Positions 18,092 through 36,444 of a stretch of 64,000 nt of DNA are shown here, in pieces. Every line of letters starts with the position of its first letter. Within the stretch, counting starts at the first letter, position 1. The notes beneath the pieces are model-generated. The model saw only the letters and a program-made list of their open reading frames with translations. It did no database searches and was not told the DNA's origin. The position numbers were made by a program, and so were the translations under genes. Origin of the DNA: Thermodesulfobacteriota bacterium (lineage in GTDB: Bacteria > Desulfobacterota > Desulfobacteria > Desulfobacterales > JARGFK01); the NCBI GenBank assembly GCA_040757625.1, contig JBFLWU010000008.1, positions 7,865-71,864 on the forward strand. Reading direction: 5' to 3'.

Positions 18092-18093
18092 AT

Positions 18094-20257: not shown

Positions 20258-20403
20258 AAACCAACCTCCCTAAAAAAGGTTGCAACGGAAAATCCTTGGG
20301 ATCTGTCCGCAGTCGCGTTCACCGGAGGTACCCAGGCGAACAGGGGCGGCGCTGCACCGGCGGGGGGGTACGGGTCTGCTGCCGTTATAAGACGGCCGGG
20401 CGC

Positions 20404-20880
20404 TCAGATCCCTCCCGCCATCATCTTCTCCGGCACCTGCACCGCCACCACCTCTCCCCGGGCGCAGACCTCGCCGTTTGCCGACAGGGTGGATTCCACA
20501 ACCACCTTGCGGCCCTTGACCTCCTTTATGCGGCCCCGCAGTTTCAGCGGCACGCCCATGGGGGTCGGCCTCAGGTAATCCACCTTTAAGGATGCCGTTA
20601 CAAACCGGAAGGGGGGGGCCGATCCCAGTTCGCGGCCGGCGGCGCGATAGGAAGCCGCCGCCGCGCTGCCGGTGCTGTGGCAGTCGATCAGGGAAGCGAT
20701 CAGGCCGCCGTACACAAAACCGGGCATGGCCATGTGATAGGGGTGGGGGGTAAAATCCGCGACGGTCTCGTCGCCGTCCCAGTAGCTTTTAATCTGGTGC
20801 CCGCGGATGTTCAGGCGGCCGCAGCCGTAGCAGTGACTGTAGTCGTCCGGGTAGTAGTCCTGAAAAGCCTTTTTATCCAT
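20404..20880 (-). CDS. PaaI-family hotdog-fold thioesterase
   Basis: 158 aa. HCYGCG N-terminal motif, GFVYGGLIASLIDCHS core. Confidence 0.8.
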   Translation of the reverse strand: MDKKAFQDYYPDDYSHCYGCGRLNIRGHQIKSYWDGDETVADFTPHPYHMAMPGFVYGGLIASLIDCHSTGSAAAASYRAAGRELGSAPPFRFVTASLKVDYLRPTPMGVPLKLRGRIKEVKGRKVVVESTLSANGEVCARGEVVAVQVPEKMMAGGI

Positions 20881-20930
20881 AAAAACAAACTCCTCTCTTT
20901 AACGCCGCCAAATGATTGGTTTCCGCGATC

Positions 20931-21542
20931 TCAGGCCTGGGATTCGAGGCATCCGCGGCATACCCACTTGCCATCGACTTCAGTCATTCGGGTCGCCATG
21001 GCCGGCTCGCCGCACCGGTCGCAGATTTTGGACGCCATAATGCGGGCTTTTTCCGGCACGGGCACGTCCACTGCCTTGATGCTGAAAAGCTGTTCCAGGG
21101 GTTTGGTTAACACATCACAGGTCCGTTGAAAATGAAGTTTTTTAAATTCGGCCTGTTCCTTTTCGTCGGCACGGCCCTCCCTGACCCGCCGTGCCAGGGC
21201 CTGATGTTTTTCATCCGGCTCGAAAGCGCCGGCCTTTAAAACCACCCGAAAGCCTTTACCGGTATTTCGGCTGAAAAAGGTAAACGCATGTTTGCCGTAT
21301 TCCTTATAAATAAAATTGCCTTTGCCGAAGGTGCAGCCGGTAAGCACCTGGACGGCATCCGCATCGCAAGCGTCCGTCTCCACAATCGTCACGAGCTCTT
21401 CGTCCGGGGACCTGCTCTCCTTGAGAAGTTCCAGGCCGGCCTTGGCCGCCCGGTAGCCGAGAGCTACCCCCGGGCAGGTGTGTCCGTGAAACTCAATGCA
21501 TTTTTTCCAGTCCCGGCTTTTTAAAATTTTTTCAACGTTCAT
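20931..21542 (-). CDS. FmdE/FwdE-family protein with C-terminal zinc ribbon
   Basis: FHGHTCPGVALGYRAAKAGLE signature. C-terminus CDRCGEP...WVCRGC. 4-nt overlap with the upstream gene. Confidence 0.8.
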   Translation of the reverse strand: MNVEKILKSRDWKKCIEFHGHTCPGVALGYRAAKAGLELLKESRSPDEELVTIVETDACDADAVQVLTGCTFGKGNFIYKEYGKHAFTFFSRNTGKGFRVVLKAGAFEPDEKHQALARRVREGRADEKEQAEFKKLHFQRTCDVLTKPLEQLFSIKAVDVPVPEKARIMASKICDRCGEPAMATRMTEVDGKWVCRGCLESQA

Positions 21543-22105
21543 TTTTTCTCTCCTGAAAAATGGATCAAATCGAGCAGGGTAAACCGAAACCGGTCCGCCG
21601 CCTGGGCCGGCAAGACCGTAAAATGAAACAGGGTATACTCCTGCTCATAATCCGTTTTGGCGGTCATGCCGTCAATGGGAATAACGACGATGTAATCAAG
21701 CTCCCGGGTGGCCCTGGTGGCGGTGTTCAATACCGAGACGTTGGAGCGGTACCCGGTAATGATGAGCGTATCGACCGCAAAGAGATTCAGGTAAGACTGC
21801 AGCTCACCGCCGGTAAACTTGTCAAAACCGTCCGGATAGATGACGGGTTCGTTCGGCTTTCGGTTCAAACCGGTATAGACCGCTCCTTCCGGGGTGCCTT
21901 TGTTCCGGAATGAAACCGTATAAATGATCGGCAGGCCCGACTCCCGAGCCCGATCCAGAAATTTCGGTACGGCCGGTATGAGGCGGTTGCAAGGCAGCTC
22001 GGGATTGCCCCAGCGCTGGCTTCCGTCCAAAACCAGTACAGCGGTTTTGTTGACATCCACGGCGACAGGTTCCGGCTTCGGCAGGTGCGGTTTTTGCTGG
22101 TTCAT
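21539..22105 (-). CDS. isochorismatase-family (cysteine-hydrolase-like) protein
   Basis: 188 aa. AVLVLDGS, DKFTG, LIITGYRSNVSVLNTA. The usual nucleophile Cys position reads Ser. Confidence 0.7.
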   Translation of the reverse strand: MNQQKPHLPKPEPVAVDVNKTAVLVLDGSQRWGNPELPCNRLIPAVPKFLDRARESGLPIIYTVSFRNKGTPEGAVYTGLNRKPNEPVIYPDGFDKFTGGELQSYLNLFAVDTLIITGYRSNVSVLNTATRATRELDYIVVIPIDGMTAKTDYEQEYTLFHFTVLPAQAADRFRFTLLDLIHFSGEKK

Positions 22106-22244: not shown

Positions 22245-23096
22245 TTAAAAATTGATACTCAAACCGACATGGGAAAACTGGAAAATATCATTAAATTCCT
22301 GTTTGATGCGGGTGATCGCCGCCAGGCCGGTGCAATGGGACGGCACCAGGTGCTGAATGTCATAGGCCTTAAGGGCCTTGATGCTTTCGCTGAGCTGGAC
22401 TTCGCCGGAAAAACCGATGTGCGTTCCCCCGACAATTCCGTAAATCCTGTCGACGCCCGAATTTTCGATAATATGATCAAGGGTATTGATGATGCCCGCA
22501 TGGGCGCATCCCAGGACGATCATCAACCCTTTTTCGGTATGAATGGCCATGGATTGATCATCCTGGATGATGTCCGGAACAACTTTGCCTCCGTCCAGTC
22601 TTACAAAACGACCGGCCATGTCCCCCCCTTCAAAAGGGGTCATCCGCGGCACTTCTCCTGTCAGAAAGATACCGTCTTCGATTTCCAAATACTTTTCATT
22701 AATAATAAAATGAGCGCCCATTTTCTCCAGGTAGCCCCGGGTGAATGGAATACCGCCGTAGCTTTCTTTCCCGTTTTTTTCACGATACTTATACGCAAAG
22801 ACATGCGGATGGGCATAAACATCGATCTTTTTTTTGCCCTGGAGGCGAAGCACATCCGGCAGGCCGCCGGTATGGTCACCGTGGCCGTGACTGAGTACGA
22901 CCTTGTTGATGGCAGCCAATTCCTTATTCAAGACCAGGGCATTATGAATGATTGTCTTCCCTTTGCCGGTGTCAAAAAGAAAATTCCCTTTCCCCGTTTC
23001 GATATACGCGCTGAATCCATGCTCACCGATCGCTTCGCTGCGTCCCGGAACCACATTGTCCGTAAGAATTGTTACCCGGCCATTGACTGTTTTCAT
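22245..23096 (-). CDS. MBL-fold metallo-hydrolase (COG1237/MptB-like family)
   Basis: 283 aa. HGFSAYIE, VVLSHGHGDHTGGL, GCAHAG. Confidence 0.8.
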   Translation of the reverse strand: MKTVNGRVTILTDNVVPGRSEAIGEHGFSAYIETGKGNFLFDTGKGKTIIHNALVLNKELAAINKVVLSHGHGDHTGGLPDVLRLQGKKKIDVYAHPHVFAYKYREKNGKESYGGIPFTRGYLEKMGAHFIINEKYLEIEDGIFLTGEVPRMTPFEGGDMAGRFVRLDGGKVVPDIIQDDQSMAIHTEKGLMIVLGCAHAGIINTLDHIIENSGVDRIYGIVGGTHIGFSGEVQLSESIKALKAYDIQHLVPSHCTGLAAITRIKQEFNDIFQFSHVGLSINF

Positions 23097-23205: not shown

Positions 23206-23538
23206 TTAATGATCGCAGACATTGGCTCCGATTTCAAGGGTATTGTCAAGATAACTTTTCACAAGAGTTTCCGGTTCCAGGGCCGGCGCGCCGACAACCA
23301 CCTTGATGCCGTTCTGGGCGAACAGACTGACGGCGCGCTGTCCCATTCCTCCGGCGATTATGATATCGGCACCCAGGTTATGAAGCCATTTGGGCAAGAC
23401 GCCGGGTTCATGGGGTGGCGGCACCAGCAGTTGTTTGTTTTTAATCTCTGCATCCTGCACCTCGATCAGCGCAAATTCCTGGCTGTGACCGAAATGGGCG
23501 GTCAGTTTGCCCTCGGCTAGCGGTATCGCAATCTTCAT
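23206..23538 (-). CDS. NifX/NifB-C-terminal-like (COG1433) cluster-binding protein, HFGH subtype, copy 1
   Basis: 110 aa from MKIAIPLAEGKLTAHFGHSQEF...PPPHEPGVLPKWL...CDH. The longer track ORF (to 23694) overlaps cooS and is rejected. Confidence 0.8.
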   Translation of the reverse strand: MKIAIPLAEGKLTAHFGHSQEFALIEVQDAEIKNKQLLVPPPHEPGVLPKWLHNLGADIIIAGGMGQRAVSLFAQNGIKVVVGAPALEPETLVKSYLDNTLEIGANVCDH

Positions 23539-23641
23539 TTTCTTCCTCCTGTCTGTCATGCAAAAATTATTAACTGTAAACTTCAATTCCAAGAAACCCG
23601 AATGAATCAGGTTCAATCCGTATGAATTCAAAATAAAACGA

Positions 23642-25672
23642 CTAGGCACTTTCAAGTTCGCGGCGTGTCGCCATATCCACCAGTATCCTCTCACGGGTTC
23701 TATCGATGCCCAGATCTTGCCGTTTCTTGTCGATATGGGCGATCATTTTTCTGGCGTGTTTGACAGGATCGGCTTCCAAATCCCACATCCCACCGTACAT
23801 CTTCTCCAGTTCCTCAAATAGATATTTCTGAAATACCGGTGCCCCGGATATCGGCAACGTCACTCCGAACACGGTATAAACGCCCGAAACGACAAAATAT
23901 TGTCCGATGCTGATGGCTTTTTCGCTCATCCATTCCGGTGCGCTTCCGGCGACCGGCAGATCACTGATGTCGTTGCCCAGTCCCCCGGCCTCAACTACTT
24001 TTGTGGCAGCAAGCAGTATGCGGCTGTTATCGACACACGAACCCATATGTAATACTGGCGGGATGCCGACGGTTTCACAAACCTCGGCCAAGCCCGGACC
24101 GCAGAAGACCGCTGCAGTTTCCGGGGTCAAAAGCCCTTCCATGGCGCAGGCAATACCGTTGCACCCGGTGGTCAGGACAATCACGTCGTTTTTAATCAGT
24201 TCCTTGACTACGGCGATATGGCCTTCGTTGTGACGGGTTCTGGCGTTGTTGCACCCGACCACGCCGGCAATGCCCCGAATACGGCCGTTGATGATGTTGT
24301 CATTGAGGGTATAATAAGAACCGCGAAAGATCCCGCCCAGATGGTATTCGATCGACTCTACCCCAAACCCGGCAACCTGAACGTGCTTGTGTTTGGGGAT
24401 CATCACTTCAGCACCCCGGTTTTTGAAATTATCGATGGCCATTTTAACGATGCGTTTGGCATCTTCAATGGCATGATGTTCGTCAAATTCGATGTGAATG
24501 ACATTTTCCTGTTCCATTTTTGCGATCGGATGGGTGGTAATGAGTTTGGTGTGGAAGCAGGCCGCCACGTTGGCGATATTTTGCATGATACACTGAATAT
24601 CCACCACCATTGCATCGCAGGCGCCGGTGATAATCGCCAGTTCCTGCTGCAAAAACGTTCCGCACAGCGGCACCCCGTGGCGCTGCAGTATTTCATTGGC
24701 CGTACAGCAGATCCCTGAAAGCTGAATGCCTTTAGCCCCCTTTGAATTCGCATATGCGATCATCTCAGGGGTTTGAACGGCGGCAACGATCATCTCGGAA
24801 AGGACCGGTTCGTGACCGTGGATGACGATGTTGACATGATCTTCCTTCAGAACACCGAGGTTTGCCTCGGATTGGAGGGGGTAAGGAGTTCCAAAGAGCA
24901 CATCCTGAAGATCGGTCGCCAGCATGGAACCACCCCATCCGTCTGCAATGGCCGCCCGGGTGCCTTGTTTAACCAAATTTTTATAATTTTGATCGACACC
25001 CATGTGGGTCCGGTGCATGATCTCGACGATTTCCCGATCGATATTTCGGGGAAGTACACTGTTTTTTTTCCATTTTTCATACAAAGGGGCCGGGGCGCGC
25101 TTCAAATACGCAAGTTCTCCCTCGGATTTTCCCCATTCATTGAGGGCTTTTTCTGCAACCTCAATCGCGATTTCATTAATATCCCGGTCCAGTTGCTTTC
25201 CATCAACTTCGACCGTAGTAACCACGTCAAAATAGGGCGCAATGGATAAAAGTTTTTCGACATCCTTTATCCGGTAGGCCTCGCTCTCCTTTCTGGCAGC
25301 CGTCATGAAGACTTCAGCCACACATCGGCCGTGATCGGAATGGGCGGCAGCGCCGCCGGCAATCATGCGGATAAAATTACGCGCCGCAATGGTATTGGGG
25401 GCCGCACCGCAAAGACCCCTGCGGTCGTCTTTGCCCTCGATCCCAGATTTGGGAAGCGGCAGGCGGCACGGCCCCATAGCGCAGTTCTTACAACAGGTTC
25501 CCTGGATACCGATATTGCAGGCTTTCATCGTGACCGCCCGGTCAAACACCGTCTCGATACCTAGCGCATGGGCGCGTTGAATCATCAGTTGGCTGGCTTC
25601 GTCAATTGTTGCTTCCACGGGATTCGCTAATTTCTTTGCCTCCAGCACTCTGGTTTCTTTTTTGTCCCCCAT
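23642..25672 (-). CDS. cooS: anaerobic Ni,Fe carbon monoxide dehydrogenase catalytic subunit
   Basis: 676 aa. D/B-cluster cysteines (KACNIGIQGTCCKNCAMGPCR, GLCGA). C-cluster ligand contexts VIHGHEP, GICCTANE, VVGCNNAR, HMGSCVDNSR. Confidence 0.93.
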   Translation of the reverse strand: MGDKKETRVLEAKKLANPVEATIDEASQLMIQRAHALGIETVFDRAVTMKACNIGIQGTCCKNCAMGPCRLPLPKSGIEGKDDRRGLCGAAPNTIAARNFIRMIAGGAAAHSDHGRCVAEVFMTAARKESEAYRIKDVEKLLSIAPYFDVVTTVEVDGKQLDRDINEIAIEVAEKALNEWGKSEGELAYLKRAPAPLYEKWKKNSVLPRNIDREIVEIMHRTHMGVDQNYKNLVKQGTRAAIADGWGGSMLATDLQDVLFGTPYPLQSEANLGVLKEDHVNIVIHGHEPVLSEMIVAAVQTPEMIAYANSKGAKGIQLSGICCTANEILQRHGVPLCGTFLQQELAIITGACDAMVVDIQCIMQNIANVAACFHTKLITTHPIAKMEQENVIHIEFDEHHAIEDAKRIVKMAIDNFKNRGAEVMIPKHKHVQVAGFGVESIEYHLGGIFRGSYYTLNDNIINGRIRGIAGVVGCNNARTRHNEGHIAVVKELIKNDVIVLTTGCNGIACAMEGLLTPETAAVFCGPGLAEVCETVGIPPVLHMGSCVDNSRILLAATKVVEAGGLGNDISDLPVAGSAPEWMSEKAISIGQYFVVSGVYTVFGVTLPISGAPVFQKYLFEELEKMYGGMWDLEADPVKHARKMIAHIDKKRQDLGIDRTRERILVDMATRRELESA

Positions 25673-25822
25673 CTAATAGCCCCCCCTTCACTTATCATTC
25701 AAGATTAGCGTTTAATTATGACTTGAAACGAAATTAACGTCGGGCAGCGTGCCCTTTAAGGTGACAAATGCAAAAAGGTTTCCTGTCCTTTCCATTAATG
25801 CTTTAAGTACGTTGCAAAAAAT

Positions 25823-26155
25823 TTAATGATCACAAAGATTGGCGCCGGTTTCGAGCGTATTTTCAAGATATCCCTTTATGAGCAATTCCGGTTCCAGCGA
25901 GGGGGCACCGGTAACAACTTTAATCCCGTTCTGGACAAACAGGCCTACGGCACGCTGACCCATTCCCCCTGCGATAATAACATCGGCACCCAGCTCATGC
26001 AGCCATTTCGGAAGCACACCGGGTTCATGGGGCGGGGGTATCAGCAGTTGTTTGCTTTTAATTTCTGTGCCCTGCACTTCGACCAGCGCGAATTCTTGGC
26101 AGTGCCCGAAATGAGCGGTTAATTTTCCCTCGACTAACGGTATTGCAAATTTCAT
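25823..26155 (-). CDS. NifX/NifB-C-terminal-like protein, HFGH subtype, copy 2
   Basis: 110 aa, about 90 of 110 residues identical to the 23206-23538 product by eye (MKFAIPLVEGKLTAHFGHCQEF...). Confidence 0.8.
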   Translation of the reverse strand: MKFAIPLVEGKLTAHFGHCQEFALVEVQGTEIKSKQLLIPPPHEPGVLPKWLHELGADVIIAGGMGQRAVGLFVQNGIKVVTGAPSLEPELLIKGYLENTLETGANLCDH

Positions 26156-26235
26156 CTTCTTCCTCCTGGCTGCTAAATTTTAAATATTTCTTATATCGGC
26201 ATGACCTTACAGCCATACCCCCGCCCATATGCGGT

Positions 26236-27111
26236 CTATACGGTTGTTGATTTAAGTCCCGCCGACACTTTACTCCAGATATCCTTTACTGCCTGTCCTG
26301 TTTTTGAGTCTGAACTGTATTCAAATATGGTTTGGCCCTGAACCATGGATTTAATAAATATGGGGTCAAAGGGAATGCGCCCCACTATCGGGAGGCCCTT
26401 ATCACGAGAAAACCTTTCAATATCCCGGGTAGCGTCTAAATTGATATCGAACTTGTTAACGCAAACCATTGCCGGGACTTTAAAATGCGCGGCCAAATCG
26501 ACCACGCGCATCATGTCGTGTTTTCCGGACACGCTGGGCTCGGTCACGATGAGAACCCCGTCGGCCCCACCGATGGAGGCAATGACCGGACAGCCGATTC
26601 CAGGCGGTCCGTCGGTTAAAATAAGATCCGGTCCGTTTTCTTGCGCAAGCTTTTGGGCTTGTCTCCGCACCAAGGAAACCAGCTTGCCGGAATTCTCCTC
26701 GGCAATGCCGAGCCGGGCATGCACCATGGGGCCGAAGCGGGTATCGGAAATAAACCAGTTGCCGCATGACTTTATCGGAAAGCCGATGGCTTTTTCAGGG
26801 CAGAAATAGACACAAACACCACAACCTTCGCACGCCACCGGATCCACAATGAATTCTTCGGATATGGCCCCCCAGCGGCACATTTCGCGGCAAAGCCCGC
26901 ATTCGGTGCATGTTTCCTTGCGGATCATCGCTTCATTTCCCGATAGAAATTCATGATGCTCCCGGATTTCGGGATTCATGATCAAGTGTAGGTCGGCGGC
27001 ATCCACGTCCGCATCACACAAGACCAAATTTTTTGCGAGGGCTGCAAAGGCCGCCAGCAGGCTGGTCTTACCGGTGCCGCCTTTACCGCTGATAACGATC
27101 AATTCTTTCAT
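26236..27111 (-). CDS. MinD/ParA-type P-loop ATPase with inserted 2x[4Fe-4S] ferredoxin domain (COG1149 type)
   Basis: ISGKGGTGKTS P-loop. CTECGLCREMC and CEGCGVCVYFCP motifs inserted after the P-loop. Confidence 0.85.
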   Translation of the reverse strand: MKELIVISGKGGTGKTSLLAAFAALAKNLVLCDADVDAADLHLIMNPEIREHHEFLSGNEAMIRKETCTECGLCREMCRWGAISEEFIVDPVACEGCGVCVYFCPEKAIGFPIKSCGNWFISDTRFGPMVHARLGIAEENSGKLVSLVRRQAQKLAQENGPDLILTDGPPGIGCPVIASIGGADGVLIVTEPSVSGKHDMMRVVDLAAHFKVPAMVCVNKFDINLDATRDIERFSRDKGLPIVGRIPFDPIFIKSMVQGQTIFEYSSDSKTGQAVKDIWSKVSAGLKSTTV

Positions 27112-27962
27112 TTAATTCGCTCCGACCCAATGACCATCGCTTGAATATCGTCGAATAATCGGATAAATTCTTCTTTCCATGCGGGCATTGCGTCGATCAT
27201 CATCTTTCCCCGGGAATAGGTTTCGGCAATGCTCCGATCAAACGGTATCTCCATCAAAACGGGCAGTTTTTCTTTTTGTGCATATTCCCTTACACGAGTG
27301 TCGCCCATATCGCTGCGGTTGATCACCAAACCGCAGGGAATATCAAGGATTTTCACCGCGCCCACCGCAAGTTCCAAATCATGCAGGCCAAATGGCGTGG
27401 GTTCGGCTACCAGCAGGATGAAATCCGCCCCTTTCATGGAAGCGATCACCGGACAGGAGGTCCCCGGAGGGGCATCGATAATGGTTACCTGCTGCGGATC
27501 GGTAACACTGCGGACCTTTCGGATCAAGGGAGGCGACATGGCTTCGCCTACCCTCAATATTCCATGGGTGAAATCGATCCCATTGCAGACCCCCTTCTGA
27601 ACAATACCCAACTCCCGTCCTTTTTCCGTAATGGCGTTCTCCGGACATACCGCTATGCAACCGCCACAGCTGTGGCACAATTCCGGAAAGGTCAATACGA
27701 TATCCCTGACCACTATAATGGCCTTGTACCGACAGATTTCGTCGCATTTGCCGCAATGGTTACACATTTCCTTGTCAACCTCAGGCACCGGGGTAAAGAC
27801 CGTTTCGGTTTCTTTGAATGACGGATGCATAAAAAGATGCGCGTTGGGCGCTTCAACATCACAATCCAGCAATTGAACATTTCGGCCGACGGCCTTAGCC
27901 AGGTTGGTGGCGACGGTTGTTTTGCCGGTACCGCCCTTACCGCTGGCAACACTGATAATCAA
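27108..27962 (-). CDS. MinD/ParA-type P-loop ATPase with inserted ferredoxin domain (second paralogue)
   Basis: ASGKGGTGKTT, CNHCGKCDEIC, CHSCGGCIAVCP. 4-nt overlap with the downstream paralogue. Confidence 0.85.
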   Translation of the reverse strand: MIISVASGKGGTGKTTVATNLAKAVGRNVQLLDCDVEAPNAHLFMHPSFKETETVFTPVPEVDKEMCNHCGKCDEICRYKAIIVVRDIVLTFPELCHSCGGCIAVCPENAITEKGRELGIVQKGVCNGIDFTHGILRVGEAMSPPLIRKVRSVTDPQQVTIIDAPPGTSCPVIASMKGADFILLVAEPTPFGLHDLELAVGAVKILDIPCGLVINRSDMGDTRVREYAQKEKLPVLMEIPFDRSIAETYSRGKMMIDAMPAWKEEFIRLFDDIQAMVIGSERIK

Positions 27963-27964
27963 TT

Positions 27965-28525
27965 TTAAACTCCTTTTTCTGCATTCCGACCATTACGAAT
28001 TGTTTCGGGTTTACGGCTGCCGCCCTGAACAGAGACGTCCTTCTGATTGAGTGCCTTCTTCTCATCTTCTTCGGCTACGGTGTCTTTATCTTTACGAATC
28101 TGCCTGATCATGTATTTATCAACGGCACTGTGAACGGTTGCCGCCGCAAGAAAAGCGCAATGCTCTACTTCCTGGGGCAGCCTGCCGATTGCATTAACAA
28201 TCGTTTCGGCGCTGATTTCTAAAAGTTCTTCGGGACTCTTTCCGATAGACAGTTCGGCCGCATATGACCCGCAGACAATACTGGGGGCGCAACCGTCCGT
28301 TTGAAAAGAGGCTTTTTCGACTGAGCCTTTCCTAAACTTTAATGAAATACAAATCGTGTCGCCGCAGGCCCCTTTCATGGATGTAGAGACGTCCGCACCC
28401 TCCAATACCCCCATGTACAGGGGGTGTTGCCATCGCTGCAAAAATGCGTCCCCATAATTTTCGCGCGCCTGTTTGAGCATCTCTTCTTGAAATTTCTGGA
28501 TAAAGACATCTATATCGCCGCTCAT
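27965..28525 (-). CDS. NifU/IscU-N-terminal-like Fe-S scaffold protein
   Basis: Three scaffold Cys contexts (GACGD, DGCAPSI, EHCAFLAA). Charged low-complexity C-terminal tail. Confidence 0.78.
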   Translation of the reverse strand: MSGDIDVFIQKFQEEMLKQARENYGDAFLQRWQHPLYMGVLEGADVSTSMKGACGDTICISLKFRKGSVEKASFQTDGCAPSIVCGSYAAELSIGKSPEELLEISAETIVNAIGRLPQEVEHCAFLAAATVHSAVDKYMIRQIRKDKDTVAEEDEKKALNQKDVSVQGGSRKPETIRNGRNAEKGV

Positions 28526-28580
28526 GCCAACCGTGTCTCACTTTCATTTAAAATAAGTTTGCTTGCCGTAATGAACACAG

Positions 28581-28934
28581 TCAGTGTGCTGTGTCGGTTT
28601 TTTTACATCCCGGCATTAAAAATTTTGATTGATTGAGCGCACCCTTAAAATACGCCCCTAATATTTCTTCCACCGGTCCGGCTATTCCCGGAATAATATG
28701 AATACCCGACACCGCCAGCATATCTGAAAAAGTCCGCGAAACAGCCCCGCAAATGAGAACATCAATATTCAGCCGGCTGATCCGAAAACATCTTCGAGAT
28801 ATTTCAAGTTCGTCTAAAATGGCCTCCATTCGTTTGATTTCATTCTGGTTATGCGTTTCAACAATCAACAGTTTTGCGGCAGTATCCAGTACCGGGGAAA
28901 CTTTATCCTCCCAGATCGGAACAGCGATTTTCAT
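28581..28934 (-). CDS. NifX/NifB-like (COG1433) protein, third subtype
   Basis: MKIAVPIWEDKVSPVLDTA...VLICGAVS...GIHIIPGIAG. Start moved to MKIAVP. Confidence 0.68.
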   Translation of the reverse strand: MKIAVPIWEDKVSPVLDTAAKLLIVETHNQNEIKRMEAILDELEISRRCFRISRLNIDVLICGAVSRTFSDMLAVSGIHIIPGIAGPVEEILGAYFKGALNQSKFLMPGCKKTDTAH

Positions 28935-28987
28935 GGCCGATTTCCTTCCAACCAAATTTGTTCCATATGTTTAGAATGTCTTTAGGC

Positions 28988-29515
28988 CTATGATTTGCCT
29001 CTTCCAAAACCCTTGTTGCTGCCGCCACCCATGCCTCTGCCGCCACCCATGCCTCTGCCGCCGCCCATGCCTCTGCCGACGCCCATGCCGCGACCCATCC
29101 CCATGCCCCCACCGCCGGCCTGCGATCGAACACTCCCATTAGACCCGACACTGCCAATTCCATAAAACTCAGAGACGGGGGCCGTCTTTGTTTCCTCTAG
29201 TTCTCCTTGCTTAAACCGTGTGACGGCATGGTTAATGGTCCCGTCTTGACCGGTAATTAATTTAATTCCGGCAGCCGAAAGCGTATTAATCGCATTGGGT
29301 CCACAGTTTCCGGTGATCACAACCTTGGCCCCTTTTGCGGCCACAAACTGGGCCGATTGGATCCCGGCTCCACCGCCCAAGCCGGCGCTTTCATTTTCAA
29401 AGGCCTCAATACTCATATCGTCCGTCTCTACGATGGCAAAATAAGCGCACCTGCCGAAGCGTTGATCGATCAGTGAATCCAAATTTTTCCCGGTGGAGCT
29501 GACAGCAATTTTCAT
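28988..29515 (-). CDS. NifX/NifB-like (COG1433) protein with C-terminal Gly-Arg-Gly-Met repeat tail
   Basis: N-terminal 115 aa are paralogous to the 33070-33432 product (MKIAVSSTG...FGRCAYFAIVE...ITGNCGPNA). The tail reads GGGGMGMGRGMGVGRGMGGGRGMGGGRGMGGG. Confidence 0.8.
   Translation of the reverse strand: MKIAVSSTGKNLDSLIDQRFGRCAYFAIVETDDMSIEAFENESAGLGGGAGIQSAQFVAAKGAKVVITGNCGPNAINTLSAAGIKLITGQDGTINHAVTRFKQGELEETKTAPVSEFYGIGSVGSNGSVRSQAGGGGMGMGRGMGVGRGMGGGRGMGGGRGMGGGSNKGFGRGKS
29024..29113. repeat. 18-bp tandem coding repeat (about 5 units) encoding the (GRGMGG)n tail
   Basis: gccacccatgcctctgcc x2, then gccgcccatgcctctgcc, then two degenerate units. Lies in frame within the 28988-29515 CDS. 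Confidence 0.8.
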
Positions 29516-29530
29516 TATGAATCCCCTTTA

Positions 29531-29773
29531 TTATTTACGCAGACATCCGGCTTGCGTTGAACAGGGAGCTGTTTCGCAGCGTTCCTCCCGGCCGCAACAC
29601 GTATGCCCCCGAGTTGGTTTCCACTCCGAGCGCAAAACAGTTGCAGCCGACAAAATCCGTACCACACCCGGACTGCCGCAATGCCTGCATGTAATTGTTT
29701 CGCCTTGCTCCGGGCCCAACAAGTACTCTGATATCGTCCCGCAATGTCTGCATCTAAATTCGTAAATCGGCAT
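29531..29773 (-). CDS. FmdB-family zinc-ribbon protein
   Basis: MPIYEFRCRHCG...TCRHCGS (CxxC...CxxC) is the hallmark N-terminus. Cys-rich tail. Confidence 0.75.
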   Translation of the reverse strand: MPIYEFRCRHCGTISEYLLGPEQGETITCRHCGSPGVVRILSAATVLRSEWKPTRGHTCCGREERCETAPCSTQAGCLRK

Positions 29774-29830
29774 TTAAAACCGCCTATCACATTTTTTAAT
29801 GAAATAACCGTCTATGATATTTCCTTTCTT

Positions 29831-29850
29831 CCCTCCCCCCGGGGGGAGGG
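29831..29850. other. perfect 20-bp GC palindrome in the predicted 5' leader of the minus-strand operon
   Basis: ccctccccccggggggaggg, located between the sigma-54 promoter candidate (29916-29930) and the first start codon (29773). Confidence 0.7.
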
Positions 29851-29915
29851 AAGCGGCAAAGGAGGTATCAGGGATCTGGCGAACCAAAACCCCAGCCAGT
29901 CATTTACACAGAGAA

Positions 29916-29930
29916 GCATTTTCCATGCCA
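29916..29930 (-). promoter_or_regulatory. sigma-54 (-24/-12) promoter candidate for the zinc-ribbon to NifX-like/cooS operon
   Basis: The minus strand reads TGGCATGGAAAATGC (GG-N10-GC spacing correct), about 143 nt upstream of the 29773 start. A sigma-54 activator gene is adjacent. Confidence 0.55.
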
Positions 29931-30272
29931 GCCATTCTCGGGTAAAGTCTACCGCTGCGAGGTCTGCTGATAGGGTTCAAGACGGTGCAAACATAACTGG
30001 ACGGGCGCTGTAATACCGGCGAGAAATAAAAGGGGCAACAGGCGGAACGCCCCTCGCCAGCACGTCGAGGGGTGTTCAACTTTAAAAGGAGTTAAATCTG
30101 AGCGGCTGCGGTCGTCAGCCGGACTGAATCCGAAATCCAGAAGTCCAAGAAAAGAATTAAACACCCGGATTCCGGCTCTGTGGCCGGAAAGACATGTTAC
30201 TAAGCGACACCATAAAATTGCTTTGTTTAGAGGCGGGCGGTTTTCATCATCTTCCGCCAGGCCGCGGCATTA

Positions 30273-30317
30273 TTGCAAAAATGCAACTATCTGCAAAATA
30301 ATTTTGCAATCGTGCAA
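30273..30317. promoter_or_regulatory. array of TGCA-based palindromes (candidate enhancer/UAS for the adjacent sigma-54 activator)
   Basis: TTGCAaaaaTGCAA (30273-30286), TGCAAAATaATTTTGCA (30292-30308, perfect 17-bp palindrome), TTGCAatcgTGCAA (30304-30317). The outer sites are 31 bp apart. Confidence 0.45.
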
Positions 30318-30363
30318 TCATTTCAGCCTGACGGGCTGATGAAAAACAAGAATCGGGCGTCAG

Positions 30364-30437
30364 TCAAGGCGCGCGCTGATTCGACAGGCGCAGCCTGTTG
30401 GGCATATGTGAGCATTGGCGAGAACCGCGCCGCTGCA
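30364..30437. repeat. intergenic repeat, family A (divergent copy)
   Basis: tcaaggcgcgcgc...catatgtgagcattgg...gaaccgcgccgctgca. Same order of conserved blocks as the 7037-7112 core, with a compensatory GC stem. Confidence 0.5.
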
Positions 30438-30470
30438 TGACGGCCTTAAACGCAGTTTTTAAAAAGCCTG

Positions 30471-31859
30471 CTAAAAATTTTTTCCCAGCATGGCGCCTTG
30501 TCGGGGCGTTTCAATGTTCAACCGTTTGATTTTTCGCCAGAGTGTCGAGGCATGGACACCCATCTGCTTTGCGGTAGCGGCTTTATTCCAGTTGTTTTGC
30601 CGTAAAGATTCATAGATAAATCTTCGTTCAATTTCATTCCATGAATTGACCGCACCCTTCAGGCCTTCCGTTTCATTTTTCACCTTCATGCTCTCCGCCT
30701 TATGGATTACTTCCGGCAGGTGTTCAATTCCGATCAGACCATTTTTACACACCACGGTGCTGTATTCGATAATATTTTCCAATTCTCGAACATTGCCGGG
30801 GTAATCATACATCATCAAGACGGTTATGGCTTCCGGGGATATCCCTTGGATTTCCCTCCCGTTTAAGCGGTTGAACTTGCGGATAAAATGATCCGTCAGC
30901 AGCGGAATATCCTCCTTGCGTTCTCTTAATGGCGGCAGACAAAGTCTCACCACGTTGATTCGGTAATACAGGTCGTCGCGAAACACTCCCGTTTTTACCA
31001 GCAAATCCAAATTCTTGTTTGTGGCGGTCACGATGCGGACATTTGCTTTTTCCGTGCGGGTCCCCCCGAGCGGTTCATATGATTTTTCCTGCAAAACGCG
31101 CAGCAGCCTGACCTGCAGCATCGGCGAGATGTCGCCGATTTCATCTAGGAACAGGGTGCCGCCTTCGGCAAGGGCCAGACGTCCGGGTTTGTCTCTTTTG
31201 GCATCGGTAAAAGCGCCGGCTTTATATCCGAACAGCTCCGATTCAAGCAGGGTGTCAGGCAAAGAGACGCAATTAACGGTGATTAACGGACCCTTCTTAC
31301 GATGGCTGAGAGAATGGATGGCTTTGGCAAAAAGTTCTTTTCCGGTTCCGCTCTCTCCTTCCAGTAGAACAGTGGTGTCATTTTCGGATATCAATTCCAG
31401 CATTCCGAACAAATCGAGCATTTCTTTATTTTTACTGATGATATCCAGAAACGAATGCTGACCGGTTAACTCTTTACGCAATGCCTCCACCACGCTTAAA
31501 TCCCGAAAGGTTTCCACCCCCCCGATAACAGCGTCATTTTCGGCTTTTAAGATGGCGGTTGAAATGCTCACCGGCAGACGATTTCCCTCGGAATTTAAAA
31601 TATATATGGATTGATTCACAATGGGCCGGCGGGTTTCAATCGTCTGACGCAGGGCGCATCGCTGCTCACAGATGCTGGCTTTAAAAACCTCCCAGCAGTG
31701 TCGTTTCAGGGCTTCCTTTTTGCTGATTCCGGTTATTTTTTCAGCGGCCCTGTTAAAAGAGGTAATCCGCCAGTCCGCATCCACGGTAAATACCCCGTCG
31801 GCAATACTGTCCAGAATGACCTGGGTGGGCGTTTCAACCAGATGATGCATCTTTTCCAT
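30471..31859 (-). CDS. sigma-54-dependent transcriptional activator (PAS - AAA+ - Fis HTH)
   Basis: Cys-containing PAS (HCWEVFKASICEQRCAL), GESGTGKE Walker A, GAFTDA (GAFTGA variant), ELENII, C-terminal HTH AAKQMGVHASTLWRKIKRL. Confidence 0.9.
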   Translation of the reverse strand: MEKMHHLVETPTQVILDSIADGVFTVDADWRITSFNRAAEKITGISKKEALKRHCWEVFKASICEQRCALRQTIETRRPIVNQSIYILNSEGNRLPVSISTAILKAENDAVIGGVETFRDLSVVEALRKELTGQHSFLDIISKNKEMLDLFGMLELISENDTTVLLEGESGTGKELFAKAIHSLSHRKKGPLITVNCVSLPDTLLESELFGYKAGAFTDAKRDKPGRLALAEGGTLFLDEIGDISPMLQVRLLRVLQEKSYEPLGGTRTEKANVRIVTATNKNLDLLVKTGVFRDDLYYRINVVRLCLPPLRERKEDIPLLTDHFIRKFNRLNGREIQGISPEAITVLMMYDYPGNVRELENIIEYSTVVCKNGLIGIEHLPEVIHKAESMKVKNETEGLKGAVNSWNEIERRFIYESLRQNNWNKAATAKQMGVHASTLWRKIKRLNIETPRQGAMLGKNF

Positions 31860-31924
31860 TTTTAATGTTATATTTAAAAAATATTACGCCGGTGAACAGA
31901 TCATTATATGGCCGGCCGGCCCGA

Positions 31925-32827
31925 TCAGAAAGCCGACGTATTCATCGCGTCTTTAGGTGATGTGGCCGCTTCATTCCCTTTGGCTATTTTTCCGGCTATA
32001 TCGGTAAAGGCCACCGAGGTCGGGGAGTTCCCGTACTTTTCCTGAAATGATTCACCACTATCGCCGCAGGATACCAACTTTGGGTCAAAGGGGATTTTCC
32101 CGATAAAATTTATTCCGGCCGCCCGGGCGGTCCTTTCCCCTCCACCCGAACCGAACAGGTCGACCTCTTTACCGCAGTGGGGACAAATAAAACCGCTCAT
32201 ATTTTCAATGAGTCCCAGAATTTTCATTTTTACCGCCCGGCAAAAATTAATCGACTTTCTGACGTCGGCCAGGGAAACCTCCTGGGGCGTCGTCACGATA
32301 ATGGCCTTGGCGTCGGGAATCGTCTGGGCAACGGTCAGGGGTTCGTCGCCGGTCCCCGGCGGAGAATCGATAATCAGATAATCAAGTTCGCCCCAGTCCA
32401 CTTCGCCGACAAACTGCTTGATAGCCGAATATTTCAAGGGCCCCCGCCAGATGATGGCATCGTCCTTGTTGACGATCAAGGATTCGATGGAAACCGCCCG
32501 CAGATTTTCCGAATAGTGCATCGGGCTCAACTTGTTGTTTTTCCCGACATCCAACATGCCGCTTAACCCGAGCATCCTCGGTACATCCGGTCCGTGAATA
32601 TCCACATCCATCAGCCCCACCCGGTATCCCTTGTTGGCAAGCGCGATGGATAAATTGACGGACACGCTGGTTTTGCCGACCCCTCCTTTACCGCTCATTA
32701 CCAGAAATTTGTTTTTTATTTTTTCCAGTGATTTTTTGACGGATTTGTCCATCTCGGCTTGAGCGACGGATCTTTCCATCTCAGATTTGGATTGAATCTG
32801 AACCGTTCCTTTCCCACGAGCTTCCAT
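31925..32827 (-). CDS. Mrp/NBP35/ApbC-family Fe-S cluster carrier ATPase
   Basis: MSGKGGVGKTSVS P-loop, DSPPGTGDE, CPHCG motif. The exact start is uncertain because there are several in-frame Met codons. Confidence 0.87.
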   Translation of the reverse strand: MEARGKGTVQIQSKSEMERSVAQAEMDKSVKKSLEKIKNKFLVMSGKGGVGKTSVSVNLSIALANKGYRVGLMDVDIHGPDVPRMLGLSGMLDVGKNNKLSPMHYSENLRAVSIESLIVNKDDAIIWRGPLKYSAIKQFVGEVDWGELDYLIIDSPPGTGDEPLTVAQTIPDAKAIIVTTPQEVSLADVRKSINFCRAVKMKILGLIENMSGFICPHCGKEVDLFGSGGGERTARAAGINFIGKIPFDPKLVSCGDSGESFQEKYGNSPTSVAFTDIAGKIAKGNEAATSPKDAMNTSAF

Positions 32828-33069
32828 ATGAACCCTCTCCTCCTTATGTGAAAAATAATCTCAACAAATTAGTTCCAACCGGTCAATTCAAACCGTTTTC
32901 CCGTCCCGCCGGGATAAAGTGCCGGGACTCAGAGTAAATGTTGAAAATCGGATTCCCGCCGCAGTTTATCACCCCTTTTTAAACGGGTCGAGACCGAAAA
33001 AATCTAAACGCCGACTATATAGAACAAAGATCGTTCATGCAAGCAGGTAAAATATTCCCGGTTTCCTTC

Positions 33070-33432
33070 CTAAATCCAGTGCCCTTCCACATTGGGGTTT
33101 TCCGCCGGTTTTAACTTCCCGTCTTTATATTGCATAACAGCATCTTTCACACTGCCGCTGGCACCGGTGACTATTTCTACGCCGGCGTTCTGCAATAACT
33201 GAAACGCCTTGGGGCCGCAATTTCCGGTTATCAATACATCCACCTTGTTCTTGACGATGGTTTGTCCCGCCTGAATGCCCGCACCCTGGGGCAGGTTTAA
33301 GCTCTGGCTATTGTTCACAATGCTATACGCCATTGTTTCCGAATCCACCACAATAAAATATGGCGCCCGTCCGAAGCGCGGATCAATTTTTGCCCCCAAA
33401 TCATTACCTGTTGATGTTACCGCCAGTTTCAT
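33070..33432 (-). CDS. NifX/NifB-like (COG1433) protein, orange-protein-like size and type
   Basis: 120 aa. MKLAVTSTG...FGRAPYFIVVD...ITGNCGPKAFQLL. RBS gggag. Confidence 0.78.
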   Translation of the reverse strand: MKLAVTSTGNDLGAKIDPRFGRAPYFIVVDSETMAYSIVNNSQSLNLPQGAGIQAGQTIVKNKVDVLITGNCGPKAFQLLQNAGVEIVTGASGSVKDAVMQYKDGKLKPAENPNVEGHWI

Positions 33433-33469
33433 TGATCATCTCCCTGTTTGTTTTTCAAACAATTGTTCA

Positions 33470-33484
33470 GCAAAATTCATGCCA
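33470..33484 (-). promoter_or_regulatory. sigma-54 promoter candidate for the NifX-like/Mrp unit
   Basis: The minus strand reads TGGCATGAATTTTGC (GG-N10-GC), with the -12 element about 38 nt upstream of the 33432 ATG. Confidence 0.6.
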
Positions 33485-36107: not shown

Positions 36108-36118
36108 TAAATTTCTCC

Positions 36119-36135
36119 TGTTAAAAAATTTAACA
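36119..36135. promoter_or_regulatory. 17-bp perfect palindrome TGTTAAA-N3-TTTAACA
   Basis: Lies 12 nt upstream of the activator start codon, at the edge of an AT-rich tract with four TTAACA copies (36119-36200). It is about 250 bp from the sigma-54 promoter at 36383. Confidence 0.35.
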
Positions 36136-36382
36136 ATAATTAAATTTTATTTTTTAACATCTTAACATAAAAATGCAACAAAAAAATTAACACCCAGAAA
36201 AATGAGATCCTCCGGACAGACGCATTGAACACCGATGACGATGATTGTTTTTTTTCAAACCTGATTTTGCAACCGGCCTTATTAGAGCTGATTTGCCCAT
36301 GCCTAGGGTTTGATCCCGACTTCCGCGGCCAGACATCCCTGAATACCTGGAAAACTGCCCTCCCGCCGCTTCCTGTTTGAGC

Positions 36383-36398: not shown

Positions 36399-36444
36399 GT
36401 AACCGGGTCGGTAAAGTATCTAAAACCTATTGATGGAATGACCC

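Follow-up and report, generated by a model that had tools for sequence, protein, structure and literature searches.

The window, by which we mean the whole 64-kb stretch of DNA analysed here, carries a run of genes, all on the minus strand, in which a gene for a carbon monoxide dehydrogenase (CODH), cooS, lies embedded among genes of orp type. Families were assigned with Pfam and NCBIfam profiles; these establish the gene identities and place every gene of a preliminary description of this DNA on the strand and in the family given there.

The run begins with NifX_A (33070..33432; 120 aa; PF02579, 89.5 bits), an orthologue of the orange protein (ORP/Orp8) whose best solved-structure match, over its full length, is D. 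gigas ORP (2WFB, E 2e-25). It is followed by a gene for an Mrp/NBP35 Fe–S carrier ATPase (31925..32827; PF10609, 324.6 bits), the translation of which shows GKGGVGKT and CPHC motifs and has Cfd1 and ApbC as its best PDB matches, and by one for an OrpR-type sigma-54 activator with PAS, AAA+ and HTH_8 domains in Pfam (30471..31859). Since orpR begins 65 nt after Mrp and in line with it, orpR probably belongs to a NifX_A–Mrp–OrpR string, a small correction to the two minus-strand units proposed earlier. 

The second, longer unit opens with an FmdB-type zinc-ribbon protein (29531..29773; PF09723, 43.2 bits) and NifX_B (28988..29515; PF02579, 91.1 bits), an IssA/IssX-like protein of NifX fold whose tail of 70 aa is cationic (9 Arg/Lys; pI 11.4) and rich in Gly (28 residues). 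There follow NifX_C (28581..28955, likely start at the ATG at 28934), a divergent NifX-fold protein (PF02579, 26.5 bits; cut-off 26.3), and a NifU_N/IscU-like Fe–S scaffold (27965..28525; PF01592, 78.9 bits) that scores under the equivalog cut-offs for NifU and IscU. COG1149a (27108..27962; CbiA, ParA and Fer4 families), a MinD-like ATPase with an inserted 2×[4Fe-4S] ferredoxin domain (Orp3/Orp4 type), has archaeal MinD proteins as its best PDB matches, CooC being unmatched at E ≤ 0.01, and overlaps by 4 nt the gene for a second MinD-ferredoxin ATPase, COG1149b (26236..27111; Pfam). NifX_D (25823..26155) is a stand-alone MrpORP 'Di-Nase' domain (NF041136 profile positions 265–365, 131.8 bits), and beyond it lie cooS (23642..25672), encoding a clade-E Ni-CODH catalytic subunit of 676 aa (TIGR01702, 594.8 bits; cut-off 478), and NifX_E (23206..23538), a second Di-Nase-type copy with 81% amino acid and 78% DNA identity to NifX_D. 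A 162-aa ORF from 23694, overlapping cooS, is an artefact, the true NifX_E ATG being at 23538. Downstream, family matches and synteny identify a metallo-beta-lactamase-fold (MBL) protein (22245..23096), an isochorismatase-family protein (21539..22105) and an FmdE-domain protein with a C4 zinc finger (20931..21542) as syntenic members of the cluster.

The cluster is genuinely of orp type, as the preliminary description had proposed from a Desulfovibrio vulgaris parts list that agrees with the literature. The activator carries C55-x-E57-x6-C64-x3-C68 and GAFTDA, matching C52/E54/C61/C65 and GAFTDA of DVU2106 (OrpR; PMC8359166, PMC4641369), a proven redox sensor (PMC8359166). Mrp scores 385.9 bits against the MrpORP profile NF041136 (positions 1–259 of 365), under the cut-off of 450 because the C-terminal domain is missing; it is the counterpart of the MrpORP (Orp9) P-loop domain, and jointly with NifX_D/E spans the profile. 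NifX_D has the HFGHCQE, PPPHEPGVLP and C-terminal CDH motifs described for MrpORP, a protein that moves Fe–S clusters and whose Di-Nase domain holds a [3Fe-4S] cluster (PMC6345978). The locus in the window shares with the orp locus of D. vulgaris Hildenborough (DVU2103–DVU2109) its sigma-54 promoters, an activator with GAFTDA and the Fe–S cysteine motif in its PAS domain, a pair of COG1149 MinD-ferredoxin ATPases, an Mrp-type carrier placed after an ORP orthologue, and further small NifX-fold proteins. It differs in that all its genes run in one direction, whereas the D. vulgaris locus consists of two divergent operons, in that the parts of MrpORP are encoded apart, by an Mrp gene and by stand-alone Di-Nase genes, and in its IssA-like, NifU-like, FmdB, MBL, isochorismatase-like and FmdE extras. 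NifX_B shares the IPR003731/PF02579 domain and the Gly-rich tail with Pyrococcus furiosus IssA and the uncharacterised 'IssX', but its tail is Met-rich and aromatic-poor, unlike that of the thioferrate storage protein IssA, an Fe–S store that rebuilds [4Fe-4S] clusters (PMC5524996).

Promoters and regulatory sites

Reading of the sequence and a pattern scan place sigma-54 promoters on the minus strand upstream of NifX_A (P1, 33469..33484, TGGCATGAATTTTGCT; 33484–33470 reads TGGCATGAATTTTGC) and of the long unit (P2, 29915..29930, TGGCATGGAAAATGCT; 29930–29916 reads TGGCATGGAAAATGC), exactly where they had first been noted (33470–33484 and 29916–29930). The pattern TGGCAY-N5-WTGCW occurs four times in the 64-kb window against 0.37 expected, a count reached in none of 100 shuffles. 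Both promoters are kept in related loci: P1 as TGGCATGAATCTTGCT in L084/L085 and TGGCATTTATTTTGCA in L162, P2 as an identical 16-mer in L055 and in related form in L084/L085. Two palindromes, TTGCAAAATTATTTTGCA and TTGCATTTTTGCAA (30273..30309, just past the orpR stop codon), are candidate OrpR binding sites; this TTGCA-N4-TGCAA pair lies at −356/−387, and in 11 related orp loci such pairs, at 5.4 times background, lie at about −111/−134 of sigma-54 promoters. The upstream site of the D. vulgaris orp locus, in contrast, is GGGCGYRTTTTGCGCCC. The 5′ leader of unit 2 contains a GC-rich perfect palindrome (29828..29853, minus strand) and folds with −52 kcal/mol (z −2.84); L084, L085 and L162 have hairpins of different sequence at the same place.

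We found no convincing promoter or terminator for cooS itself, a weak sigma-54-like motif (AGGAAACCTTTTTGCA) lying 112 nt upstream of it. Since neither is recognisable, cooS is most likely read through from P2, and its co-transcription with unit 2 is likewise suggested by gene spacing and the absence of terminators.

The CooS protein

CooS is a canonical clade-E Ni-CODH. Its best PDB matches are 6t7j, 6ytt and 6b6v, and the ligands of its B-, C- and D-clusters are all invariant across 81 relatives. It is 80–85% identical to the acsA products of Desulfobacterales CODH/ACS operons (cdhD-acsA-acsB-acsC-acsE) and nests within their radiation, but unlike these operons the window has no acs genes (tblastn). 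Nor does it contain cooC (probed with three Desulfobacterales CooC proteins and a D. vulgaris-type CooC), and cooF, cooA and rcoM were absent from the Pfam results for about 45 ORFs scanned in the window, so that the absences first listed for this DNA hold at that scope. A canonical Ni-CODH subunit with all cluster ligands is also encoded by the CooA/CooS/CooC and cooFSCTJ-type loci of D. vulgaris and Rhodospirillum rubrum; the window differs from these in having no CO-sensing regulator, CooC/CooT/CooJ or CooF nearby, and its cooS is expected to be expressed through sigma-54 and a redox sensor instead of in response to CO. In D. vulgaris, cooS (DVU2098) is not embedded in the orp locus but forms a separate CooA–CooS–CooC unit four locus tags from it, and a 91%-identical relative has no orp genes within 10 kb.

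Linkage of cooS and orp-type genes

We found no published description of a cooS within an orp cluster in the literature. A survey of species-representative genomes, covering the 80 cooS loci closest to that of the window (29 CODH/ACS operons, 51 not), establishes that the association recurs in dozens of related species, with gene order shuffled from lineage to lineage. Orp-type genes lie near 36 of 56 non-ACS but only 1 of 29 ACS loci (Fisher p 2e-8) or, where at least 3 kb flank both sides, 29 of 36 and 1 of 16. When the neighbours are clustered without bias, the OrpR-type activator comes out first (29 of 55 loci), followed by NifX (22), COG1149 (20) and NifX_C (20). Two genomes contain both kinds of cooS (L022 with L070, L039 with L076). 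The preliminary description would have abandoned the link had cooS its own promoter and the association no conservation; the association is conserved, and cooS lacks a convincing promoter.

The regulatory features recur as well. About 20 non-ACS cooS loci have near-consensus sigma-54 promoters 65–275 nt upstream of cooS, whereas ACS-type loci have none there; the OrpR Cys motif is present in 22 activators adjoining cooS, and a TTGCA-N4-TGCAA upstream site is common to several loci. It may be that cooS has repeatedly come under the control of sigma-54 and OrpR because CODH, being oxygen-sensitive, is of use only when the redox potential is very low, and that CODH and the orp proteins share a switch and no biochemical relationship. 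We consider this rather unlikely, even though the near-universal trait of non-ACS cooS loci is the sigma-54 promoter and not a fixed orp gene set, and OrpR has a proven redox-sensing role. Moreover, in some lineages (L029, L163) close CooS relatives are governed by sigma-54 activators of response-regulator type and have no orp genes around them, and the locus can do without cooS, and likewise without the COG1149 pair. Shared regulation, however, does not need linkage as tight as that of the NifX-fold gene that in 20 loci immediately adjoins cooS and shares its strand, upstream in some and downstream in others (the NifX_C type being the commonest immediate neighbour in other loci), nor the compact IssA-like NifX_B, NifX_C, cooS unit behind one promoter in one well-supported clade, nor the Mrp, NifU and NifX genes attached to the ACS operon of L066, the only ACS-type copy with orp neighbours. 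An FmdB-type gene lies directly upstream of cooS in L045 and L154.

Seen from the orp side, the link is real and recurrent, yet one-sided. In a reciprocal scan with COG1149b as query, cooS was present in only 4 of the 80 closest loci; of the 26 with a length of 10 kb or more, 3 contained it. The five closest relatives (L082–L086; 80–85% amino acid identity, same gene order) lack both cooS and NifX_E and have the MBL gene directly after NifX_D, its product being 81–85% identical and in the same position; no FmdB-type gene was detected in L084/L085. L162 keeps cooS in the same position, with the COG1149 pair reduced to a 55-aa remnant. The orp machinery is not dedicated to CODH, since cooS is missing from most orp-type loci, among them the five closest relatives.

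These observations bear on the earlier suggestion that the orp set replaces CooC, its ATPases and NifX-fold carriers building and inserting the Ni–Fe–S C-cluster so that CODH needs no CooC, CooT or CooJ. That suggestion is weakly supported, and we regard it as improbable. NifX-fold proteins do carry preformed complex clusters in nitrogenase maturation (PMC5524996). Neither the window nor the 10 kb to either side of any non-ACS cooS contains a cooC, in contrast to the CooA–CooS–CooC arrangement of D. vulgaris-type loci, and Mrp matches PDB 3vx3 (E 1.3e-28), which we take to be an Mrp/MinD-family ATPase reported as a Ni chaperone for archaeal hydrogenase. However, 26 of 29 ACS-type loci also have no nearby cooC, so that the cooC of these genomes normally lies elsewhere; such paralogues must still receive Ni, and local absence of cooC therefore proves little. 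Against the proposal, too, COG1149 proteins do not match CooC1 whereas true CooC does, L162 keeps cooS after losing the COG1149 pair, most orp loci have no cooS, and the proteins of the cluster showed neither a His-rich nor a CxC Ni-binding motif of the kind usual in Ni chaperones.

Quite improbable, in our view, is that CODH, through CO oxidation or CO2 reduction, trades low-potential electrons with the COG1149 2×[4Fe-4S] or Di-Nase [3Fe-4S] clusters and so powers reductive cluster assembly by the orp complex. COG1149a and COG1149b hold the only ferredoxin-like modules of the operon, the midpoint potential of the Di-Nase [3Fe-4S] cluster is −445 mV, and no CooF, FNOR or hydrogenase partner lies beside this cooS or among its recurrent neighbours; but in L162 and in the clade around L031 cooS has no COG1149 pair nearby, most orp loci work without cooS, and free ferredoxin could be the acceptor. 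CO sensing by CODH on behalf of the orp machinery, also raised earlier, found no support.

Discussion

We favour, at about even confidence, an orp-type Fe–S/metallocluster locus with an optional cooS cassette read from P2, in which the orp proteins supply Fe–S clusters to CODH. The locus would serve iron–sulfur/metallocluster storage and delivery, switched on by sigma-54 and the OrpR-type activator, which would sense very low redox potential via its PAS-domain Fe–S cluster. The cassette, a monofunctional clade-E cooS (an acsA paralogue) with NifX_E, lies between NifX_D and the MBL-fold gene and is optional, and cooS is best read as belonging, optionally, to the low-redox regulon of OrpR; given read-through from P2, CODH would be made only under strongly reducing conditions, alongside the IssA-like store, the NifU-like scaffold, Mrp, the two MinD-ferredoxin ATPases and the NifX-fold carriers. 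CooS is thus a likely Fe–S client of these proteins, which could feed the five Fe–S-based clusters of the CODH dimer, and we infer that Ni insertion would still proceed via CooC encoded elsewhere in the genome.

As in the NifB/NifX/NafY systems of nitrogenase cofactor-precursor carriers, genes of the PF02579 fold family here lie beside the gene for a complex metallocluster enzyme, but the window has no nitrogenase, NifEN or radical-SAM NifB domain and the putative client is a Ni–Fe–S enzyme, for which we know of no preformed-cluster carrier. Since the pairing recurs in many Desulfobacterales genomes but is optional, it is a lead and not proof of a new maturation pathway; as such, it offers a testable approach to both the CODH and the orp systems.

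Gene content and identity of the orp locus

Judged by its predicted proteins, the locus is an orp-type cluster in the strict sense, and it also carries cooS, the gene for a carbon monoxide dehydrogenase (CODH). Every gene named in the preliminary description was found, on the minus strand and with the family stated there (ORF list, Pfam, NCBIfam). The run opens with NifX_A (33432–33070, 120 aa; ORF list, Pfam, NCBIfam), one of five NifX-fold genes named NifX_A to NifX_E, followed by the gene for the Mrp/NBP35 Fe–S carrier Mrp (32827–31925; Pfam, NCBIfam) and that for a PAS-AAA+-HTH sigma-54 activator of the OrpR type (31859–30471; Pfam). A longer unit comprises the genes for an FmdB zinc ribbon (29773–29531), NifX_B with its Gly/Arg tail (29515–28988), NifX_C (28955–28581) and a NifU_N protein (28525–27965; all Pfam), the two MinD-ferredoxin ATPases COG1149a (27962–27108) and COG1149b (27111–26236), recognized by their CbiA/ParA and Fer4 families (Pfam), NifX_D (26155–25823; Pfam, NCBIfam), cooS (25672–23642; Pfam, NCBIfam TIGR01702) and NifX_E (23538–23206; Pfam, NCBIfam). 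Past NifX_E the same-strand run continues with MBL-fold (metallo-beta-lactamase-fold), isochorismatase-family, FmdE and thioesterase genes (ORF list, Pfam); all genes between 33432 and 19619 in the ORF list of the window lie on the minus strand.

The best solved-structure match of NifX_A is the D. gigas orange protein ORP (PDB 2WFB, E 2e-25, residues 2–114 against 6–119), and NifX_A is followed by Mrp just as, in D. vulgaris orp8–orp9, the ORP gene is followed by that of an Mrp-type carrier. COG1149a and COG1149b, each with two CxxCxxCxxxC motifs in its translation, correspond to Orp3 and Orp4 of the D. vulgaris orp cluster. No fused MrpORP (NCBIfam NF041136) is encoded in the window, where the two domains belong to separate genes; since Mrp matches NF041136 over profile positions 1–259 only (385.9 bits, cut-off 450) and NifX_D and NifX_E match positions 265–365 (131.8 and 134 bits), MrpORP is present in split form. 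In MrpORP the 'Di-Nase' domain, which binds a [3Fe-4S] cluster, is marked by the motifs HFGH(C/S)xE, PPPHxPGxxP and a C-terminal CDH, and both NifX_D and NifX_E contain them; the MrpORP fusion itself has undergone many gains and losses in evolution (PMC6345978). The activator carries C55, E57, C64 and C68 (C-x-[DE]-x6-C-x3-C, in the PAS domain) and a GAFTDA loop; OrpR (DVU2106), which senses redox potential via a PAS [4Fe-4S] cluster, has the same Cys motif and GAFTDA (PMC8359166, PMC4641369).

The locus also departs from that of D. vulgaris, whose orp parts list lacks the NifU_N scaffold and NifX_B added here. Two divergent operons flank orpR in D. vulgaris, whereas the genes here run in a single direction, and the OrpR palindrome GGGCGYRTTTTGCGCCC, upstream of both D. 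vulgaris operons, is absent, with zero matches near the locus at ≤3 mismatches. In NifX_B a PF02579/IPR003731 domain is joined to a tail of 70 aa with 28 Gly (40%), 9 Arg/Lys (6 Arg) and 6 Met (pI 11.4). This tail resembles the thioferrate-binding tail of IssA, an Fe–S storage protein, and of the uncharacterised 'IssX' proteins related to it (PMC5524996). It is cationic like that of IssA, but rich in Met and poor in aromatics, and it may bind anionic Fe–S (or thiometallate) polymers. GMGRGMG-type repeats make up the tail (28988–29200).

Just downstream of the orp run and near the FmdE-domain gene (region 13663–21542) lie a molybdate/tungstate-type ABC transporter (17195–19496), a PBP_like+HTH (ModE-like) regulator (16217–17152) and the gene for aldehyde:ferredoxin oxidoreductase (13663–15849), a tungsten enzyme. 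This neighbourhood deserves mention in view of the Mo-Cu-S cluster bound by the orange protein.

The CODH of the locus

The CooS encoded here is, by sequence and clade assignment, a canonical clade-E Ni,Fe-CODH catalytic subunit. It scores 594.8 against TIGR01702 (the equivalog for the anaerobic CODH catalytic subunit; cut-off 478), and across 81 sequences there is no variation at the C-cluster His and five Cys, the B-/D-cluster Cys or the catalytic His and Lys. Its top PDB matches, from which the clade is taken, are CODHs of Thermococcus AM4, C. autoethanogenum and D. vulgaris; the first and last belong to clade E, as does one C. autoethanogenum isoform, left unnamed (PMC13056359).

The nearest relatives of this CooS (80–92% identity) are all from Desulfobacterales, and its D. 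magnum homologue is acsA within a cdhD-acsA-acsB-acsC-acsE operon. No CODH/ACS operon gene (acsB/cdhC, cdhD, acsC, acsE) was detected in the window by tblastn with the four D. magnum proteins, in keeping with the earlier remark that acs genes are missing. Two genomes carry both an ACS-type cooS, situated in a CODH/ACS operon, and an orp-linked copy (L022 with L070, L039 with L076), which makes the orp-linked gene a paralogue. In a neighbour-joining tree with a D. vulgaris-type root, CooS proteins encoded outside such operons (non-ACS) nest inside the ACS-type radiation with backbone bootstrap values ≤46%, and one compact clade, with OrpR, an IssA-like NifX_B, NifX_C and cooS, has 100% support. 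A single origin of orp-linked CooS was considered and set aside, one and several origins being indistinguishable in these distance-based trees, with their weak backbone (bootstrap ≤46).

Neighbourhoods of cooS in Desulfobacterales

The 80 closest cooS loci were sampled from species-representative genomes; many of the contigs are short, and because neighbours were assigned by tblastn using protein queries from the window itself, divergent orp genes can escape classification. Of these loci 29 are CODH/ACS operons and 51 are not. A survey of cooS neighbourhoods had been proposed in the preliminary description, and in it orp-type genes (NifX-fold, COG1149, Mrp, NifU-like) recur beside non-ACS cooS: with the window and four individually fetched loci (L162–L165) also counted, they occur at 36/56 non-ACS loci versus 1/29 ACS-type loci (Fisher p 2e-8), and where at least 3 kb of flank is present on both sides, at 29/36 versus 1/16. 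The sole ACS-type locus with such neighbours (L066:16955–19175) has a CODH/ACS operon and then Mrp, NifU-like and NifX-like genes on the same strand.

A same-strand NifX-fold gene abuts cooS at 20 loci, upstream in some and downstream in others, and gene order around orp-linked cooS varies widely between lineages, which favours selection over inherited synteny. When the neighbours within 6 kb were clustered without recourse to annotation (55 loci), the commonest were an OrpR-type activator (29 loci), NifX (22), COG1149 (20) and NifX_C (20); no CooC, CooF, FNOR or hydrogenase family was found among them. As a separate reading, electron coupling, in which CODH would exchange electrons with the ferredoxin or [3Fe-4S] modules, appears quite unlikely.

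Other arrangements occur. In L163, whose CooS is 88% identical to that of the window, and similarly in the L029 group, cooS is accompanied by genes for a histidine kinase and for a sigma-54 activator of the response-regulator type, and orp genes are absent. At L163:7114–14582 histidine kinase, response-regulator sigma-54 activator, USP and receiver genes precede cooS and AprB-/AprA-like genes directly follow it, so that the CODH there adjoins APS-reductase-like genes. A radical-SAM protein (~313 aa) is encoded downstream of cooS in 11 non-ACS loci (e.g. L029:12935–13921), mostly of the response-regulator-type activator group. The position of D. vulgaris cooS (DVU2098) four genes from orp (DVU2103) was considered as an ancient link and is treated as coincidence. 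The contig of one D. vulgaris-type locus (L164) stops short of orp. In L165, a 91%-identical relative, efflux genes come after CooA-CooS-CooC and the 10 kb around contain no orp.

The reverse comparison, with COG1149b as query against metagenome contigs and the 80 closest loci kept, found cooS in only 4/80 loci, and in 3/26 among those of at least 10 kb. The cooS–orp link is thus one-sided: cooS usually has orp, but orp clusters usually lack cooS, which makes the orp set a general system with CODH as an optional partner. The five closest relatives (L082–L086) share with the window, at 80–85% identity and in unchanged order, NifX_A, Mrp, OrpR, NifX_B, NifX_C, NifU, COG1149a/b, NifX_D, MBL, isochorismatase and FmdE, and in them the MBL gene directly follows NifX_D, with neither cooS nor NifX_E. 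NifX_D and NifX_E are 78% identical as DNA, and each has 81–84% protein identity to the single gene of L082–L086. A more distant relative with cooS (L162, CooS 87% identical) has cooS in the same position and shares wider synteny, including the TusA/Hdr side; its COG1149 pair is down to a 55-aa remnant (L162:9374–9541), and a DUF4213/DUF364 gene (12053–12775) follows cooS where the window has NifX_E. The orp set had been put forward as a possible maturation machine for CODH; that it is dedicated to this task is made less likely by the one-sidedness just described and by L162, where COG1149 has been lost. As to the direction of the cooS indel, gain and loss are not separable, cooS being present in the window and distant L162 and absent from the closer L082–L086. 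In L082 (2665–3408) and eight other orp loci the same DUF364 ('putative heavy-metal chelation') gene separates the MBL gene from the isochorismatase gene; it is missing from the window.

CooC

In the window, four CooC probes at E ≤1–10 picked up nothing beyond the COG1149 and Mrp genes, whose P-loop similarity to them is weak. This bears out the earlier statement that cooC is absent there; nor was a CooC found in non-ACS cooS loci (the D. vulgaris type set apart) or among the 80 orp loci. D. vulgaris-type cooS loci, in contrast, read CooA-CooS-CooC, and the CooC probe of that type matches CooC1 in the PDB, which confirms its identity. Local absence nevertheless carries little weight, because 26/29 ACS-type loci likewise have no cooC nearby; the Ni chaperone is probably encoded elsewhere in these genomes. 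Replacement of CooC by orp genes, the possibility raised in the preliminary description, seems quite unlikely. COG1149 was also considered as a CooC homologue and rejected, being archaeal-MinD-like with no CooC1 match in PDB and BLAST comparisons.

Promoters and candidate regulatory sites

Putative sigma-54 (−24/−12) promoter motifs lie at 33469–33484 (P1, before NifX_A) and 29915–29930 (P2, before the long unit), exactly where they had been placed before, and both are kept in the closest relatives of the locus; TGGCAY-N5-WTGCW has 4 matches in the window against 0.37 expected (pattern scan). In the gaps flanking cooS no sigma-70-like match, terminator or stable hairpin was found. A cooS-specific promoter was rejected, the sole candidate being a sigma-54-like motif at −112, which is weak and falls in a short segment just past the NifX gene; a similar CAGGAA...TTT occurs in NifX_E and L083, with poor alignment. 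Given gaps that hold neither promoter nor terminator, and only this weak motif, we infer that cooS is most likely transcribed by read-through from P2.

Near-consensus candidate sigma-54 promoters stand 65–275 nt upstream of cooS in about 20 non-ACS loci versus none of the ACS-type loci, and the OrpR cysteine motif is found in 22 activators adjacent to cooS. Pure co-regulation of cooS and the orp genes, under which the two would share control and nothing else, is possible but rather doubtful, since the tight NifX–cooS adjacency speaks against it. Paired TTGCA-N4-TGCAA palindromes occur at about −111/−134 from sigma-54 promoters in 11 orp loci, at 5.4 times background density. In the window the candidate sites (30273–30309) directly follow the stop codon of orpR; relative to P2 they are at −356 and −387, and there are none before P1. 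In relatives the palindromes are ~110–190 nt upstream of the promoter as against ~356–387 in the window, which therefore has ~190–245 extra bases between enhancer and promoter; further inverted repeats (30045–30077) fall within these.

The 5' leader of the long unit (29774–29915) contains a perfect 26-bp GC-rich palindrome (29828–29853; fold −52 kcal/mol, z −2.84), and L084/L085 and L162 have leader hairpins in the same place, of a sequence unlike that of the window. Since position is kept though sequence differs, the seemingly conserved structure suggests a leader RNA element; no Rfam family was found in the whole window.

A second sigma-54 unit (34722–42031) has TGGCATCCGCTTTGCA at 36383–36398 (+) before genes for TusA (36445–36696), a 1138-aa HdrA-like flavoprotein, MvhD and a Fer4 protein; a divergent PAS-type activator (GAYTGA; 34722–36107) stands beside it, and L162 has this arrangement next to its orp locus as well. 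An unusual receiver–Hdr fusion of 1157 aa (43497–46970) combines ferredoxin, response-regulator receiver and HdrA-like flavoprotein, with HdrC- and HdrB-like genes after it (47162–48666). Between the two Hdr-like units lies a 388-aa ORF (42094–43260, minus) with no Pfam match at E ≤1e-5.

Discussion

The orp-type neighbourhood described here is a genomic context of clade-E cooS that is widespread in Desulfobacterales and has not been listed before. CODH neighbourhood surveys list WLP, ECH, FNOR, ABC-transporter, regulator and 'standalone' contexts and make no mention of NifX-fold, Mrp, COG1149 or orp genes (PMC6344411, PMC13056359, PMC13240472), orp papers make none of CODH, and we found no paper describing a link of orp, orange protein, NifX, Mrp, COG1433 or COG1149 with CODH; it is on these grounds that we count the context as unlisted. 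The sigma-54/OrpR and NifX-fold genes supply a genomic context missing from those surveys, in which orp-linked cooS loci may have been filed under 'standalone' or a generic 'FeS'.

We consider it about an even chance that an OrpR/sigma-54 low-redox regulon has taken up cooS as an optional cassette and that the co-produced orp proteins supply Fe–S to the CODH. Such a regulon would comprise an IssA-like Fe–S store, a NifU-like scaffold, the Mrp carrier, the COG1149 ATPases and the NifX-fold carriers. Through recruitment of cooS the oxygen-sensitive CODH would be made only under strongly reducing conditions, together with proteins able to supply its five clusters, and Ni insertion would probably be left to a CooC encoded elsewhere.

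A more specific proposal, which we regard as unlikely, is that the NifX-fold carriers, acting with the Mrp/COG1149 ATPases, the NifU-like scaffold and the IssA-like store, build or deliver a preformed Fe–S (or Ni–Fe–S) C-cluster precursor to the monofunctional CODH, independently or upstream of CooC. Such a route would be analogous to the carrier-based trafficking of NifB-co and FeMo-co and, if true, would make CODH the first physiological client of the orange-protein complex. To our knowledge, assembly of the Fe–S part of the CODH C-cluster is poorly understood. For the orange-protein complex itself a role in cell division is a hypothesis only (PMC8359166), and the recurrent, optional linkage to a canonical enzyme that can be assayed makes CODH metal content and activity a concrete read-out of orp function.

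Finally, the regulation of cooS outlined here as part of a low-redox regulon leads to the prediction that in many Desulfobacterales a second CODH, monofunctional, is produced only when the redox potential is very low, which would bear on CO cycling in sediments.
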